Origin: a virus
Taxonomy: Duplodnaviria; Caudoviricetes
Direction: 5' to 3' (one strand)
Length of the DNA: 62,650 nt
Virus record (IMG/VR): IMGVR_UViG_3300020044_006256
Coordinates: 1 to 62,650 of that record
Shown here in pieces: positions 9,170 through 54,380 of this stretch. Made by a program: the position numbers and the translations under genes. Within the stretch, counting starts at the first letter, position 1, and each line of letters opens with the position of its first letter. Under the pieces are notes generated by a model, which did no database searches, had not been told where the DNA came from, and saw only the letters and a program-made list of their open reading frames with translations.

Positions 9170-11781
9170 ATGGCTGTTTGGGTTACTATTATATATTCAT
9201 TTGTTAATGCTCCATCTCTGTAATATTCTAAACCTACTACATCCACTCTATCAACACCAGTTGCATTGTATGCTACTGTGATTGTAAATTCAACATCTTG
9301 AGTATTATTTAATATTGCACTATAAGATAAAAAAGATAATGCTGCTGGTCCTTTTACATTAAAATAGTCATAGTCATTTAGATAAACAACTAAATCAATG
9401 TCAATTGTTTCTTTGTCTGTTTGAATGTTTGGTAAATTAGCAAATCTATATCCTACAGAACTTGCAGCATCTATTCCTCTGTAGTCTGTTATTAATTCAA
9501 AGTTAGCCTCTCCAGTTGTTAAGTCTGTAGTGAAAGAATTTATTATGTATCTTTTGTTTCTTATTACTAGCCTATCATTCAAAGCAATACCATTTGCAAT
9601 TCCATTCCCATTTGTGACAGTACTCCCCAATAAACTAGGTGGCAATAATGCCTTTACTTTTAATATTCTAGTTTTAATATTGTAAAGGTTGTTTACATAG
9701 TTTCTGTAGTTTCTGAAATACAAACCTTGTGGTGCTAATTCATTCAGCCAACTTGATTGTTCATTTCCAAAGTTCATAGTCATCAAGTGAGAATGCGATG
9801 TGTCACTAGGTAAACTATCATATTCATTTGAGAATCTGTTGTAGTTTGTAATTTGTGTTGCAGCACCAGTTGAATTGGTTAAATAGATTCTATCACTTCC
9901 AGTTAATGGAGTCACTAATCCATTGCAGTAGATTAGCATAGGTTTAGGTATATAAGGTTTTAAATCTTTATCCACAAGAGTTGCAGTCTGAAATAGTTTG
10001 CCTTGTGTTGGAACTTCAAACAGTACATTTTCAAAAGGAAGTTTTATGTCGTATGTGGCACTTTCTGTAATCCTTTCAGACTTATATATCAAGTCTCCGT
10101 AATTGTGTGCATATAATCCTCTAAATGCGTTATTGAGTATGTTTGGACTCTCTTCATAAGTAAAGTTAATACTCTTGTACAGTTTTGGTTTTTCAACGCT
10201 TAAATCTTGGCTATATACATACTCGGTTAAATCTAATGTCTTACCAGCATTGTAATATAATTCTAATGGTGCAAACTCAAAAGTATTGTTTCCTCTTGGG
10301 ATTATCATTAAGTTAAAAGCCTTTATAATACCAGTTAAGAAATCATTTATTTTTATATCTGGGACATAATTAACAATGTCAATATTTCCAATGGTTGTCA
10401 TACTTGTGTTTGTAGCTATACCTACAGTTAAATATGTCAAAAAATTACCAGCAACAATATAATTGTAATGTCTAGTTAGTTTTACAGTTGGTGCAAAATT
10501 CATTGTAAAATCAGATGAAAATCTAAACGTATAATTATGTGAGTTTGGATCTTCGCTTCTCCTTACTGTTTCCCCTCTTACAGTTCTTGTACCAGTTAAT
10601 CCAGTATATGAATTATATAAATCTCCATCTTTGTAAATAAATACACTATAAGGTATTGCACCAAATCCTCCCGCTGGTACTATTGTAATTTCTATTTTAT
10701 TATAAATGTCCCCTACTGCGTTTGCAGCAACCCAATCCCATTTTGTTCTCAACACATCTGTAGTCAGATTCATTTCAGTAAATGGTGATGAAGTGATAGT
10801 TGTAAAATTTAAAGGTATTCTTTGCGTTTGCTCTGACATTGACAAAGATGGCTTAAGGTACAAGTACAATTTTCTCCATTGGTCCAAAGAAAAAAAACTG
10901 CCAGTAAATGTCAATCCATATTTACTTTGTATCTTAAGAAATATATTTGAAAGTTTAATGGCTGGGTACAAATCGTTCCATCTTACTGCACCAGCTAGTG
11001 TTGTAATGTCATCACTTGCGTGAGTAGCATCTTGGTAATAGTATTTTTTTGCATTTCCTATTAATGGGTATTTAATATCTCCAGTTGTAGTTGCATTAGT
11101 TATTCTCCCTCTTACATTTGCACTATCATATGTGTGATTATATACAGAATAATCTAAAGTATTTAGTTTGTCATCTTTTATAACATCTTTCAACTGCGTA
11201 AGATTGCCATAAAAAGTAATAGAGTAACTTTCTATAAATCCATTCTTTTTATCTGCTTTCTCTAGTTGTATAGTTCCATTCTTAAACCTTTGCGTGTTTA
11301 CTTCGATATAGGCATCGTAACGCATTCTATGGTCAAAACCCTCATCGATAGAACTTTCATACCAATGCGATAATATTTGGTTATTATTCTTTGATGCTGG
11401 AATAGAAAACGACTGAGTATAGTCTGTATACAACTTCCCTATGTCATTTGAGTTGCTAATTTGCGAAGTAATAGAAATTTTCTCATCTTTAAATAAATCT
11501 AATCTTTGGTAATCACTTCTATAAATTTCATATGTATCAGTATTATTAACTTCAATTGCTGTTTGTAAAGTTAATACAGTATTTGTATTTGATGCAATGT
11601 AAGAAAGTAAGCCAATGTTTTCACCGGAAGTAATTTTAATATAATGCCCTATATATTGGTCAGTTGTATAACTTGCCGTTGAATCAGTTACAGTTAAAAA
11701 TGGTGTGCTATTATCTGTAGTAACAATTCCGGCATATACCTTTGTATTTTTCTTAATATAAACCTCTACGCTTAACTTCAT
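9166..11781 (-). CDS. Large tail tip/hub protein
   Basis: 871 aa; RLDLFKDE, DYTQSFSIPAS, LPFE motifs shared with 38557..40557. Confidence 0.65.
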   Translation of the reverse strand: MKLSVEVYIKKNTKVYAGIVTTDNSTPFLTVTDSTASYTTDQYIGHYIKITSGENIGLLSYIASNTNTVLTLQTAIEVNNTDTYEIYRSDYQRLDLFKDEKISITSQISNSNDIGKLYTDYTQSFSIPASKNNNQILSHWYESSIDEGFDHRMRYDAYIEVNTQRFKNGTIQLEKADKKNGFIESYSITFYGNLTQLKDVIKDDKLNTLDYSVYNHTYDSANVRGRITNATTTGDIKYPLIGNAKKYYYQDATHASDDITTLAGAVRWNDLYPAIKLSNIFLKIQSKYGLTFTGSFFSLDQWRKLYLYLKPSLSMSEQTQRIPLNFTTITSSPFTEMNLTTDVLRTKWDWVAANAVGDIYNKIEITIVPAGGFGAIPYSVFIYKDGDLYNSYTGLTGTRTVRGETVRRSEDPNSHNYTFRFSSDFTMNFAPTVKLTRHYNYIVAGNFLTYLTVGIATNTSMTTIGNIDIVNYVPDIKINDFLTGIIKAFNLMIIPRGNNTFEFAPLELYYNAGKTLDLTEYVYSQDLSVEKPKLYKSINFTYEESPNILNNAFRGLYAHNYGDLIYKSERITESATYDIKLPFENVLFEVPTQGKLFQTATLVDKDLKPYIPKPMLIYCNGLVTPLTGSDRIYLTNSTGAATQITNYNRFSNEYDSLPSDTSHSHLMTMNFGNEQSSWLNELAPQGLYFRNYRNYVNNLYNIKTRILKVKALLPPSLLGSTVTNGNGIANGIALNDRLVIRNKRYIINSFTTDLTTGEANFELITDYRGIDAASSVGYRFANLPNIQTDKETIDIDLVVYLNDYDYFNVKGPAALSFLSYSAILNNTQDVEFTITVAYNATGVDRVDVVGLEYYRDGALTNEYIIVTQTAI

Positions 11782-25266: not shown

Positions 25267-25475
25267 TTTATTTTTTCATTTATAAGTATTAATTTTTGAA
25301 CTAAATTGTCATAATCTTCTTTTACCCATTGTTGTATGTTAGTTGATGAATAAAAATATAATTTACAAAAATCTGGCGAATGTTCTCCTCCATCTTCTAT
25401 TGCTCTAATATCATTTAAATCAATTAGTATTTTTTTATTTTCATTTGTTGTAAATTCTATAAATTTCTGTTTCAT
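25263..25475 (-). CDS. Hypothetical protein
   Basis: ORF in operon context. Confidence 0.5.
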   Translation of the reverse strand: MKQKFIEFTTNENKKILIDLNDIRAIEDGGEHSPDFCKLYFYSSTNIQQWVKEDYDNLVQKLILINEKIK

Positions 25476-25739
25476 AATATATTTAGTTATTAATTAATAC
25501 TACTTTGAAGTTATTAGTTGGTGAGTAAACAGAGGAAGCCTAAGGGAATAACTGCGTTAGCGTTAATCCAGATATTAATATTTTTCATTTAATACCTTTA
25601 TCATCTGTTTGATTCTACTTAGTTAGCTACTAGCAGTTTCGTTTACAGTTGCACCATTAGAAACCCATTTTAGTGCTTTAAGAATAAGTTAAATTGTTGT
25701 ATTTCCCCATAAATACTTATCCCGATTTGTTTAGGTAAC

Positions 25740-25826
25740 AAAAAACCCTATCAAGGGATGCAGACTTGGTAGGGTGTAATTTTGTAATTATTCAACACCT
25801 AAATCAATAGGTGCATCCTAATTGAT
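25740..25826 (-). ncRNA. Candidate structured leader/attenuator RNA with loop-loop complementarity
   Basis: -7 TATCTTTG at 25831-25838; hairpin carrying GGATGCA; terminator whose loop carries TGCATCC. Confidence 0.55.
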
Positions 25827-25878
25827 GAGCCAAAGATAAAAATATAATTTAATAAAAAAAACTTTTAAGTAATTATTT

Positions 25879-50703: not shown

Positions 50704-50976
50704 ATGAAAAACGCACCCGAAAAGCCGTACACCCTAAAAGAGATTTCAGCAATTCACGGGATCCCTATTGACATATTGCAATACCGATGCGTGAAACGGA
50801 AATTAAGACCAACTGTAATGGATGGAAAGTTTAGATACAATTTAGACCACGAGCAAATGCTTTCTGTATTAGATAAGTCCAGCAGAGCGGAATTAATACC
50901 CGAAGTGATCTATGTCACCAGGACTATTGAAACTTACGAAAGCCGTTTAAATTATACTCCTTTAAGTAAACTGTAA
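50704..50976 (+). CDS. HTH DNA-binding protein (excisionase-like)
   Basis: YTLKEISAIHGIPIDILQYR. Confidence 0.5.
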   Translation: MKNAPEKPYTLKEISAIHGIPIDILQYRCVKRKLRPTVMDGKFRYNLDHEQMLSVLDKSSRAELIPEVIYVTRTIETYESRLNYTPLSKL

Positions 50977-50993
50977 AAAAAATAAAAAAATAG

Positions 50994-51036
50994 GTAGTGA
51001 ATATCACTACTAATTGAAAAACATTTTGTAGATTTG
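50994..51036 (+). promoter_or_regulatory. Replication-operon promoter with 17 bp palindromic operator
   Basis: GTAGTGAATATCACTAC at 50994-51010; -7 TAGATTTG at 51029-51036. Confidence 0.65.
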
Positions 51037-51041
51037 CTTTA

Positions 51042-51141
51042 TAGTAACGAAGTGGAACACGTTACAAATTGAAACGACATTACCAAGTCTTATCAACGAA
51101 GCGTGTTCCACATTACCGCTGAATTGATGAGGCTTTTTTTT
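51042..51141 (+). ncRNA. Candidate structured leader/attenuator RNA with loop-loop complementarity
   Basis: Hairpin GTAACG/CGTTAC carrying GTGGAACACG; terminator AAGTCTTATCAA/TTGATGAGGCTT plus T run carrying CGTGTTCCAC. Confidence 0.6.
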
Positions 51142-51199
51142 AACAACAAATGCAAGGTTTAAGCATTCTAATTTTAAACCATAAATAAATATTTTTAAG

Positions 51200-51883
51200 A
51201 TGGAAACAACATCAAACCGCAGACAGGCATTTGCCACACCGCAAAGCAACCCAGCTACTAAATTCCTAGATTGGAAATCAAATGACAAGTGTTTTGAGTA
51301 TTACGACAAAGCAGAACAAAAGAAAGTACAAGTTGCTTTACCTTTTAAATTTTTAGTCCTGGATGAATTACACACCATTAAAGGATGGAATGACGCAAGT
51401 AGTTCTAGTATCTTCTCTAATGAAGTGAAATACATTTCAAAGGAGGCAATGACTGTCAAACCATTCAAAGGGAATGAGATTGCTAAAGGTCTTTATAAAG
51501 ACATTAAAGACAAGGTTGTTGCTGCTGGAGGTCATTATACTAAAAGCATTTACATAATGCTTGAAAATGGCGAATTAGCCAACCTGCAACTTAAAGGATC
51601 CGCAGTTCAAAAATGGGGTGACTTTACGCAAAAAACTAGAAACCGTTTAGCGGATGAATGGATTACAGTATCCAAAGCATTGGAAGGTAAAAAAGGAGCA
51701 GTTAAATTCTTCACTCCTGAATTTGGTTTTGAAAAATCACTTTCAACCGATGAAGCAATCCAAGCGGATGAATGCTTTAACGTTTTAGAAAGCTATCTAA
51801 AAAGCTATTTAATCAAGGTTGAACAGGTTTTAGTTGAAGAAACAGTCAACGTTTCAGACGATAGTGAAGATTTAGACTTCTAA
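51200..51883 (+). CDS. ssDNA-binding-like replication protein
   Basis: Precedes primase-helicase; acidic DDSEDLDF C-terminus. Confidence 0.55.
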   Translation: METTSNRRQAFATPQSNPATKFLDWKSNDKCFEYYDKAEQKKVQVALPFKFLVLDELHTIKGWNDASSSSIFSNEVKYISKEAMTVKPFKGNEIAKGLYKDIKDKVVAAGGHYTKSIYIMLENGELANLQLKGSAVQKWGDFTQKTRNRLADEWITVSKALEGKKGAVKFFTPEFGFEKSLSTDEAIQADECFNVLESYLKSYLIKVEQVLVEETVNVSDDSEDLDF

Positions 51884-51917: not shown

Positions 51918-52028
51918 AGTCAACATAGCAAACATTTTTTAGAGAAAAGTACCCCCCCCCTTATTTTTTACCTATTGAAAAATCGTGGGGGGTATATAAA
52001 AAAGGAATTAATGTTCACTATGTTGACT
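51918..52028. other. Large inverted repeat, candidate replication origin
   Basis: AGTCAACATAG/CTATGTTGACT arms enclosing TACCCCCC/GGGGGGTA, between SSB-like and primase genes. Confidence 0.5.
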
Positions 52029-52043
52029 ATAACAACAAAAATT

Positions 52044-54380
52044 ATGAATGTATCAGTATTTAAAGATTTATTTAAGTCCCAGGATGTACCCTTTATTGTA
52101 CCTATTGAAAAAATTATCAAAAGGATACAGCAGGGGACTTCTAAAGACTTAATAAATAGAATACGTACAGCAGAAACAAAGGAGTTAAGAAACGCCATTA
52201 AAACGCAGCTTCCCTCTATTTTGTTTGCTGGAGAGTTTTCGGAACGTAATTCCAAATCACTTGTTAAACATTCAGGTTTAATGGTTGTGGATTTTGATAA
52301 GTACGAGAATGATGCGGTTATGAATGAACACTTAAAGCTGTTAAAAGAAAACCCACATTTCTTATTGTTATTTATATCGCCTTCAGGGAACGGAATAAAA
52401 GGAGTTGTAAAAATTCCACAAGCAACAAAGGAAACGCACCCTAAAATATTCAAAGCATTTCAAAAGGAATTTAATTTTGACTACTTCGATATTTCCAACT
52501 GTAATGTTGACCGTGTTTGTTTTGAAAGCTACGATCCAAATATTTACGTGAATTATGATGCTACGAATTTTGATGCTAAAATAATTGATGAAGGATATGA
52601 AATAAAAGAGAAAGCGCCTTTGGTTCCAATAAGCGATGAAGATAAGATTATCGAAAAGATAATGGCTTTCAACTGGAGCAAGGATTTCAAAGAAGGGGAG
52701 CGCAACGCTTTTATATTTGATTTAGCAGGAGCATTCTGTGAGTACGGAATAAATGAAGGTAATGCAGAAGGTTATATTTTAAATAATGTAGTCATAGGCG
52801 AATTTTCAGAAAGAGAGGCTAAAACCACTATTAAAAGCGCATACAGATTGCGACAGTTTAATAGCAAGTTCTTTGAAGATTATAATAAAATCAAAGCTAT
52901 TAAGATTGATTTAAAGAATGGCAAAGATGAAGTACTTAAAAAGTACAACATTGAGGAGGATGTTTACAACGAGTTAAAGGAAGAAGAAACCCACGAAGAT
53001 TTTTGGGTTATTGATAAGAAGGGAGGTATTAAGATTGAGCCTTTGAGATACAAGTTATTCCTGGAGCGTAACGGATTTAAAAAGCACTATCCAAACGATG
53101 CTCAAAAGTCAACATTTGTGTTTATTAATTCCAACAAAGTAAAAACCACATCGGTTGACATTATCAAAGACTTTGTCCTGGATTACTTAATGGCAAAAAA
53201 AGAGTTTAATGTTTGGAACCATTGTGCAAATTGTGCTTACTTATTTTCGGAGCAGTTTCTTGTGATGTTAGAGAGTATCGATTTAGCAATATTAGCAGAC
53301 ACAAAAGACAAAAGCTATATTCCTTATGAAAATGGAGTACTGGAAGTAACCAAAGATGAATTTCGATTAATCGATTATATTGATGTTGGCTATTACATTT
53401 GGAACGATCATATTTTAGAACGTGACTTCATTGAGATTGAGGAATTTGAAAACGATTACCAAAGATTTGTAAACAACATATCCAATAACGAGCCATTTGC
53501 AGTTGAATGTGTACTTGGATACTTGTTATCAACTTACAAAAATCGTTCAAATAACAAAGCTGTTATCCTTAATGACGAGGTTATAAGCGAAAACCCCGAA
53601 GGAGGAACAGGAAAAGGTGTATTTGTTCAAGGTGTTGCTCAAATTAGAAAAACATCAATTATCGATGGTAAGTTATTCGATGGTAAAAAGTCATTCGCTT
53701 ATCAAACCGTATCACTCGACACAAAGATTTTAGTATTTGACGATGTAGCGAAAGGATTTTCATTTGAGGAAAAATTTAGTCTAGTTACGGAAGGATTAAC
53801 GTTAGAACGTAAAAATAAAGATGCTATAAAACTGAATGTACACGACAGCCCTAAACTTATAATCTCAACTAACTACGCAATCAAAGGGGAAGGTAACAGC
53901 CACGACAGAAGAAGGTTTGAGGTTGAAATTGCGCAGTACTACGGTAGTAAATTAACTCCAGAGGATGAGTTCGGCAGACAGTTGTTTGACGATTGGGATT
54001 TGATTGATTTTCAAAAGTTCGATAATTATATGGTTGACTGTTTACAGAAGTTCTTAAAGAATGGATTGGTTAAACAGAACGCTAAAAATATTAAGATGCG
54101 AAAATTCATTGCTGAAACTTGTATGGAGTTTTACGAATGGATCCACGAGCCTGACAACTGCGACAGAAACGAGCGCATAGATAAACAGGTAGCGTTTAAC
54201 AATTTTGTGAACGAGTACAAAGATTTCCAAAAATTCTTAACTCGTAAGAAGTTCAATATTTGGATACAGAAATACTGCAAGTTTATTGATGTAGAATATT
54301 TAAGCGGAAATTCAAACGGCTTACAATGGTTTACGATTAAGACTGGTGAATTAGTAGAAGTAAACGATATAGATTTTTAA
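52044..54380 (+). CDS. BT4734/VirE-N-type primase fused to PriCT and SF3-like helicase
   Basis: HSGLMVVDFD, FISPSGNGIK, RVCFESYD, EGERN, GGTGKG, LVFDD; start set to MNVSVFK. Confidence 0.8.
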   Translation: MNVSVFKDLFKSQDVPFIVPIEKIIKRIQQGTSKDLINRIRTAETKELRNAIKTQLPSILFAGEFSERNSKSLVKHSGLMVVDFDKYENDAVMNEHLKLLKENPHFLLLFISPSGNGIKGVVKIPQATKETHPKIFKAFQKEFNFDYFDISNCNVDRVCFESYDPNIYVNYDATNFDAKIIDEGYEIKEKAPLVPISDEDKIIEKIMAFNWSKDFKEGERNAFIFDLAGAFCEYGINEGNAEGYILNNVVIGEFSEREAKTTIKSAYRLRQFNSKFFEDYNKIKAIKIDLKNGKDEVLKKYNIEEDVYNELKEEETHEDFWVIDKKGGIKIEPLRYKLFLERNGFKKHYPNDAQKSTFVFINSNKVKTTSVDIIKDFVLDYLMAKKEFNVWNHCANCAYLFSEQFLVMLESIDLAILADTKDKSYIPYENGVLEVTKDEFRLIDYIDVGYYIWNDHILERDFIEIEEFENDYQRFVNNISNNEPFAVECVLGYLLSTYKNRSNNKAVILNDEVISENPEGGTGKGVFVQGVAQIRKTSIIDGKLFDGKKSFAYQTVSLDTKILVFDDVAKGFSFEEKFSLVTEGLTLERKNKDAIKLNVHDSPKLIISTNYAIKGEGNSHDRRRFEVEIAQYYGSKLTPEDEFGRQLFDDWDLIDFQKFDNYMVDCLQKFLKNGLVKQNAKNIKMRKFIAETCMEFYEWIHEPDNCDRNERIDKQVAFNNFVNEYKDFQKFLTRKKFNIWIQKYCKFIDVEYLSGNSNGLQWFTIKTGELVEVNDIDF

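Follow-up and report, generated by a model that had tools for sequence, protein, structure and literature searches.

In the plasmid systems of pT181, pIP501 and ColE1 (RNA I/RNA II with Rop), loop-loop kissing decides on the formation of a terminator or the maturation of a primer, and single-base changes in the loops of plasmid antisense RNAs create new specificities. Matched mutations also change the specificity of c4 in the phages P1 and P7. In the guanidine-IV riboswitch a kissing loop competes with the completion of a terminator stem, which leads to read-through (PMC11611296). The locus analysed here holds a predicted promoter-proximal, structured leader RNA of about 100 nt, which would start near position 51041 and run to the U-tract at 51134-41, and which contains a hairpin and a terminator with complementary loops.

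The window, by which we mean the whole stretch of DNA that was analysed, is a single contig of 62,650 bp. It contains two related, complete phage genomes, denoted A and B, each with its own portal and large terminase (Table 1). The relatives of these phages are contigs of about 30-35 kb, and the tandem could have come from two prophages or from a join made in the assembly. On the minus strand of phage B lie an integrase and a CI-like repressor; these are followed on the plus strand by small early genes, the leader stretch, a gene for a 227-aa protein, a primase-helicase and a helicase. DNA of the window was recovered in 20 sequencing runs, all of them DNA metagenomes and all with small shares, and no DNA match to the window was found among cultured phages. 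A profile search of genome contigs yielded 6 loci, in MAGs of Flavobacterium, Bacteroidetes and Chitinophagales; these titles indicate Flavobacterium and other Bacteroidota as the hosts. Around an A/T-rich centre, nine C in a row and six G in a row (51950-51995) make up an inverted repeat, located where the primase-helicase ORF is listed to start. Similar C-run/G-run repeats are present in three related loci (L043, L134 and L135), and the repeat may be an origin or a terminator.

Table 1. Positions of the leader, its neighbours and the corresponding elements of phage A in the window.
Feature	Position	Strand	Remarks
Phage A / phage B, tandem halves	1-27700 / 27800-62650		each with portal phrog_33693, large terminase and phrog_38559 protein
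Phage A leader	25740-25838	-	same architecture, without sequence similarity to the window leader
Phage A -7 box	25838-25831	-	
Phage A hairpin 1, arms	25825-21/25808-04	-	X at 25818-12
Phage A terminator	25775-45	-	X' at 25762-56; T6 at 25745-40
Integrase, phage B	46759-47913	-	
CI-like repressor, phage B	48514-48885	-	
7-3-7 palindrome	50994-51010		just upstream of the leader promoter; terminator-like on the minus strand
Bacteroidota sigma-A -7 box (TAnnTTTG), TAGATTTG	51029-51036	+	sequence prediction
Hairpin 1	51044-51065	+	6-bp stem, arms 51044-49/51060-65; 10-nt loop 51050-59
Box X	51052-51059	+	in the loop of hairpin 1
Linker	51066-51084	+	19 nt, A-rich, unpaired; semi-conserved ACAUUA at 51077-51082
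Predicted intrinsic-terminator hairpin	51085-51141	+	basal stem 51085-96/51124-35 (12 pairs, 2 G-U); purine-rich 3x3 internal loops 51097-99/51121-23 (possible tandem G-A); apical stem 51100-03/51117-20 (4 bp); 13-nt loop 51104-16; U8 tract 51134-51141
Box X'	51104-51111	+	in the apical loop of the terminator
Loop-loop (kissing) pair, 8 bp	X 51052-59 with X' 51104-11	+	duplex energy -12.1 kcal/mol
H-type pseudoknot	51149-51180	+	S1 51149-53/51163-67; S2 51156-62/51174-80
Conserved A/U-rich tract of UAAA type	51181-51199	+	from the pseudoknot to the AUG
Gene of the 227-aa protein, phrog_6706	51200-51883	+	
Primase-helicase (BT4734-like N, PriCT_1, DUF5906)	51975-54380	+	start codon uncertain

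The sigma-A consensus box of Flavobacterium is placed at -12 to -5 (PMC9723704), and transcription is therefore predicted to start near 51041, three bases before hairpin 1. An earlier note, made from the sequence of the window, had listed a -7 box, a hairpin, a spacer and a long terminator with its T-run; all of these can be read directly, base for base, the one correction being that the 5' arm of the terminator begins at 51085 instead of 51086. The 10-nt complementarity described in that note is likewise exact: read in reverse complement, 51102-11 gives the 10-mer at 51052-61. The minimum free energy (MFE) fold of the RNA 51041-51141 (-25.7 kcal/mol) agrees with this reading and consists of hairpin 1 and the terminator, with X and X' mostly in loops, and the fold of 51036-51145 has a z-score of -4.06 relative to shuffles. 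An A-rich/ACAUUA spacer similar to the linker of the window was seen by eye in several other scaffolds. The palindrome that the note had placed upstream as an operator is present as well. Its arms recur with other centres in L001 and L002 and before a second module of L088, and in relatives it is flanked by A- and T-runs in the manner of a bidirectional terminator; it may be an operator, or a (bidirectional) terminator of the upstream gene.

Taken alone, the match between X and X' in the window is weak evidence, since the 8-mer of box X occurs in 3 copies in the window where 1.55 are expected. The case rests on the relatives, and with these included the complementarity of the loops is, as judged from sequence comparison, beyond chance. 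In three unrelated scaffolds, including that of the copy in phage A, the loop-loop pair is kept via compensatory changes. A search with the 227-aa protein recovered 80 viral loci, 5 of which (L001-L005) carry a hairpin-plus-terminator leader at the same place; these leaders have three unrelated sequences, each with its own complementary pair of loops. When the 90-aa gene upstream was used as the query, L081-L083 were obtained, of which L082 has the scaffold of the window and L081 and L083 have a second scaffold.

The sample for the window-type scaffold comprises 3 sequences (the window, L001 and L082), and in 3 out of 3 all 30 pairs of a four-helix model are kept. This includes the loop-loop helix (8/8 pairs) and the terminator (16/16 stem pairs, with one compensatory change per stem). 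In L082 each of the four helices shows one compensatory change, among which a C-G to U-A change in the stem of hairpin 1, which is still paired, and an A-U to G-C change in the loop-loop helix. Further window-type leaders were sought in three ways: a viral pattern scan gave only the L082 contig again, a metagenome scan with the alignment of the 90-aa protein gave no relative, and a metagenome pattern scan gave only the L001 contig again (L112) together with one chance match (L111).

For the second scaffold, the search pattern consisted of the promoter and the first hairpin and left the second loop unconstrained. Of the 17 stretches that matched, 5 belong to known contigs and 12 are new; in ten of these 12 the module is present and its 7-nt complement is perfect, and the remaining two (L090 and L095) have no module and were discarded as chance matches. 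In 10 out of 10 well-aligned sequences all positions of the 7-bp loop-loop helix are paired (100%), and two of these positions have changed on both sides (CG 7, UA 2, GC 1 and AU 6, GC 3, UA 1). Counted without 3 of the 13 rows (L083, L089 and L100), in which MAFFT had misplaced the second loop, the covariation score is 0.231 versus 0.065 in shuffles; it was equalled in 0 of 500 shuffles and exceeds the score of all slid registers. Inspection by eye of the three omitted rows showed 7/7 complementary positions in each, with quite different letters.

The copy in phage A, which the earlier note had given as 25740-25826 and had described as matching in architecture and not in sequence, indeed has these properties; its actual span is 25838-25740, on the minus strand. 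Its relatives were found through a neighbouring phosphoesterase gene. On this scaffold, 14 distinct leaders have a complement of 7-9 nt as counted by script, L130 has one of 5 nt by script and of 7 with one G-U by eye, and L123 and L131 were read by eye. The pair is kept in these relatives with about eight different loop sequences. Behind the terminator of phage A lies a stretch of about 260 nt without a long ORF (25475-25739, minus strand), the first 40 nt or so of which are conserved in L113-L119 and L130, which suggests that another non-coding element, or else a very short gene, is located there.

The family as a whole has kept both hairpins with the promoter placed 5-8 nt ahead of the first, a pair of 6-9 bp between the loops, a terminator whose internal loop is rich in purines, a U-rich tract and a start codon at a short distance. 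Box X was found in about 25 different sequences, and the loops differ in nearly every lineage. Not conserved are the extension of the match to 10-12 nt in the window and the alternative helix that arises from this extension; in L082 the extension into the stems is lost. Relative to the terminator fold, a nested X:X' alternative helix lies at +0.9 kcal/mol in the window, at 3.0 in L001 and at 9.5 in L082, the median over 43 modules (defined below) being 8.3 kcal/mol. A conserved switch based on this helix was rejected, as it is near-isoenergetic in the window only. Of the family of RNA switches with variable loops that the earlier note had proposed, the family and its covarying loops thus hold, whereas a switch built on the 10-nt boxes is not supported. 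The nested MFE folds of the modules place X and X' mostly in hairpin loops. Folds of truncated transcripts favour X:X'; the cut-off left out the apical 3' arm and these folds were therefore not counted as evidence. The family feature is the kissing pair and not a classical 2:3 antiterminator, and at the level of aligned sequences the leader structure is established by covariation.

An unbiased scan of the window and 104 loci, in which every -7 box with a stem and T-run within about 95 nt was collected, showed how general the loop pair is. It yielded 96 candidates, 67 of them unique, which were scored by the longest exact complement between the leader and the interior of the terminator. A complement of at least 7 nt was present in 41 of the 67 unique candidates (61%) versus 105 of 1305 non-cognate pairings (8%). 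Candidates with a G/C-containing complement of at least 6 nt were called modules (44 candidates). The next element is an ORF start in 43 of the 44 modules, at a median of 12 nt past the T-run, and a -7 box between T-run and ORF was found in 0 of 44, whereas an ORF follows in 0 of the 23 non-module candidates. Essentially all real units of promoter, terminator and gene in these phages thus have the loop pair. The window, too, lacks a -7 box between 51141 and 51200. The downstream genes have no promoter of their own and the polymerase must therefore read through the terminator, as the earlier note had argued. The layout is that of a leader-terminator attenuator, with a promoter, a stem with U-tract and a gene without its own promoter, of which promoter and terminator are sequence predictions.

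In every scaffold the -7 box lies 5-8 nt before hairpin 1, and the hairpin begins 0-3 nt (median 1) from the predicted 5' end. One phage can contain several modules with different loops, for example L092 with three and L013, L035 and L088 with two each, and the modules within one phage are mutually orthogonal. Leaders of this kind precede many different early genes, so that the role in controlling phage replication assigned to them earlier is too narrow. The 90-aa neighbour gene is linked to the module at some loci only.

L081 and L082 are the two ends of one viral contig of 33,808 bp and each contains a near-identical 90-aa gene. Beyond this gene the L081 end continues into the second scaffold and the L082 end into the window-type scaffold, and the first genes that follow differ. 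There is a mosaic joint right at the leader, and the leader travels with the genes downstream. The viral contig L092, with its three kissing-loop leaders, also contains four tandem tRNA genes (9723-10029).

As to the function of the leader, we consider the chances about even that it is a cis-acting attenuator in which the kissing pair sets termination versus read-through; the pair would tune termination, with read-through as the probable direction. A polymerase starting at the leader promoter would have to pass the terminator to express the genes for the SSB-like protein, the primase-helicase and the helicase. Box X' would exit the polymerase before the 3' arm of the terminator, and the kissing pair could therefore form first. 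Most likely it would then hinder the completion of the basal terminator stem and so set the share of read-through, with polymerase speed, a protein that binds the kissing complex or a competing RNA as candidate modulators. The geometry of the scaffolds bears on this in two ways. In several of them a linker of only 7-13 nt adjoins a terminator arm of about 20 layers, and there, by our own geometric estimate, a complete stem could hardly exist together with a coaxial kissing complex. Linkers of 19 nt (the window) and of 25-30 nt with a middle hairpin (the second scaffold) look long enough for the pair and the full terminator to coexist. Because of this, and because the boxes lie in loops of the terminator fold, the terminated RNA might just as well be stabilized by the pair. 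The strength and good conservation of the terminators speak for frequent termination, and no conserved alternative (antiterminator) helix was found among the modules, where forcing X:X' into a nested form has the median cost given above. The A/U-rich region in which translation of the next gene starts includes the U-rich tract, and the conservation of this tract may in part serve translation.

Other explanations have to be weighed against this cis-acting attenuator. Nearly all transcripts might stop at the terminator by default, with the kissing pair serving only to lock the short RNA in its fold and with read-through granted by an antitermination factor of the phage or the host, an option that we hold to be unlikely. 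The unit of the lambda promoter PR', 6S RNA and tR', on which Q acts, is the parallel for such a factor. Rop recognises the kissing complex of ColE1 RNA I/RNA II by its shape, and the factor might by analogy do the same here. Strong stems and U-tracts directly after strong promoters in 44 modules agree with a default-off unit, as does the position of X and X' in loops of the terminator fold, and the occurrence of several modules with different loops per phage would fit one shape-reading factor. However, no candidate antiterminator was found, the 90-aa gene accompanies the module at some loci only, and the loops have no conserved sequence on which a sequence-specific protein could act. Alternatively, the hairpins and the kissing pair could shield the mRNA against nucleases and present a U/A-rich landing site for the ribosome, termination being incidental. 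The closeness of hairpin 1 to the predicted 5' end and of the start codon to the T-run would suit a role in stability or translation, and Bacteroidia are described as lacking Shine-Dalgarno pairing (PMC9976891). Yet a GC-closed stem of 9-12 bp followed by 5-8 U is a canonical terminator signal, which is kept in unrelated scaffolds, and the 5' UTRs of Flavobacterium are reported to be typically short, with a median of 24 bp (PMC9723704). We consider this account of the leader improbable.

An action in trans can also be imagined, in which the terminated leader of about 100 nt uses X or X' to pair with nascent leaders that share its specificity, on sister or superinfecting genomes. A changed termination would then result in operon-specific feedback, dosage control or immunity, in the manner of P4 CI, P1/P7 c4 or Gifsy-1 IsrK. 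In favour of this, complementary boxes occur in one leader before a primase-helicase operon, as described for P4, and IsrK is presented as a terminated leader that acts on its own read-through transcript (PMC4825925). Moreover, many specificities exist among close relatives, near-identical upstream genes precede different modules (L081 versus L082), and the modules of one phage are mutually orthogonal. On the other hand, the two loops can pair with each other in the finished RNA and would thus be masked, and there is one box pair only instead of a seqA/seqC arrangement, with no Rfam match to C4 or IsrK. In addition, the loop helix evolves about like the stems (between L003 and L004 the basal stem is altered and the loops are unaltered), and therefore does not point to diversifying selection. 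We regard action in trans as quite unlikely. The third copy of the box X 8-mer in the window (59082-89) was considered as a target in trans and dismissed, as it is at chance level (1.55 expected) and has no extended match. A further idea, in our estimate unlikely, is that the loop pairs are addresses and that each early operon has a self-specific kissing code; by means of this code its terminated leader, or a protein that reads the shape, would feed back only on those nascent leaders that have the same code. If this were true, the phages would possess an RNA-only, programmable form of autoregulation, dosage control or immunity that works operon by operon, with the kissing loop as a ligand-free, topologically enforced antiterminator. 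Matched mutations in the loops would then give rise to new types of immunity or incompatibility, as in plasmid copy control.

The earlier note makes no mention of a second structured element, which was found in the follow-up. Eight bases past the U-tract starts an H-type pseudoknot that covaries and is a separate element of the same 5' UTR. It is present in 49 of 60 distinct upstream sequences and missing in the 11 in which the gene abuts the upstream ORF, while 6 loci could not be scored. In the 49 distinct sequences 98% of the cells are paired and 10 of the 12 pairs have changed on both sides, and the covariation of 0.609 (0.168 in shuffles) was reached by 0 of 500 shuffles. In most relatives the promoter lies directly before the pseudoknot, without the terminator leader.

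The pseudoknot precedes the gene of the 227-aa protein, which has an acidic C-terminal tail with an invariant terminal F. Its nearest counterparts in cultured phages are hypothetical proteins of mycobacteriophages with less than 36% identity, and there are no others. The matches of its predicted fold are dominated by OB-fold ssDNA-binding proteins; they are weak (T4 gp32 with Z 4.9, RB69 gp32 with Z 4.3, many RPA/SSB proteins with Z 3-5), and a Foldseek search with the model returned no match at E<=0.001. The best structural match, with Z 7.3, is 9teh_I, a chain of a PhiC31 integrase-RDF synapse entry. Judged from the modelled structure, the protein is probably an OB-fold ssDNA-binding protein. 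Of the two genes that had been proposed to follow the leader, the primase-helicase stands and the SSB-like one is backed by weak fold matches of Z 3-5. In T4 and RB69, the operator of gene 32 is described as a pseudoknot with an unstructured, A/U-rich tract behind it that extends to the start codon of the gene for the ssDNA-binding protein (PMC535899). The locus resembles it in having a 5' pseudoknot of about 30 nt and an A/U-rich tract of UAAA type that reaches the start codon (PMC535899). It differs in that there is no sequence relation, the tract of the window is about 19 nt versus more than 40 nt, and the protein of the window is weakly SSB-like. By analogy, we hypothesize that 51149-51199 is an autoregulatory operator bound by the 227-aa protein. 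The neighbouring pseudoknot would suggest that autoregulation of an ssDNA-binding protein in the style of gene 32 has arisen independently outside the T4 family.

The leaders form an uncatalogued family in Flavobacterium-type (Bacteroidota) phages. With Rfam 15 there were 0 matches in the whole window at the gathering score and only 4 tRNAs in 16 related loci, and at E<=10 the region 50950-51250 gave only 4 matches, with E values of 1.5-7.8, far below the gathering scores. The Rfam comparison that the earlier note had named as a check on novelty thus matched no family and novelty stands against Rfam 15; a full-text search of the literature found no description of such leaders. The timing of early and replication genes in Bacteroidota phages is little known, and the leader family offers a concrete, mutation-testable regulatory device, in which two matched mutations suffice to rewrite the base-pairing code. 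Should the kissing pair indeed decide termination, the leaders would be natural, ligand-free relatives of the kissing-loop riboswitches and a ready source of orthogonal transcription gates for Bacteroidota.

A comparison with the described systems shows correspondences as well as differences. The guanidine-IV riboswitch (mepA motif) shares the 5' hairpin and the terminator hairpin with kissing loops (PMC11611296). However, its loops are conserved and require guanidine, whereas those of the phage leaders are variable Watson-Crick helices of 6-9 bp without a conserved pocket, and it precedes guanidine-export genes where the phage leaders precede replication and early genes. The P4 CI system (seqA/seqB/seqC) is alike in having complementary boxes in the leader of a replication (primase-helicase) operon and in its control by premature termination (PMC4825925). 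Yet the RNAs of P4 and P1 undergo processing, resemble tRNA and have two target boxes on which they act in trans, whereas the terminated leader of the window has one box pair, with one box in each of its hairpin loops; membership of P4 CI/P1 c4 (the Rfam C4 family) found no backing in an Rfam match or a tRNA-like gene. IsrK of Gifsy-1 is similar as a prophage leader in which one promoter gives rise to a short terminated RNA and a read-through mRNA (PMC4825925). It differs in acting in trans and in opening a ribosome-binding site, and the part of that source dealing with IsrK describes no kissing between the loops of a hairpin and a terminator. Finally, the plasmid antisense RNAs are counter-transcripts from the opposite strand, whereas the partners in the phage leader lie on the same strand and in the same RNA.
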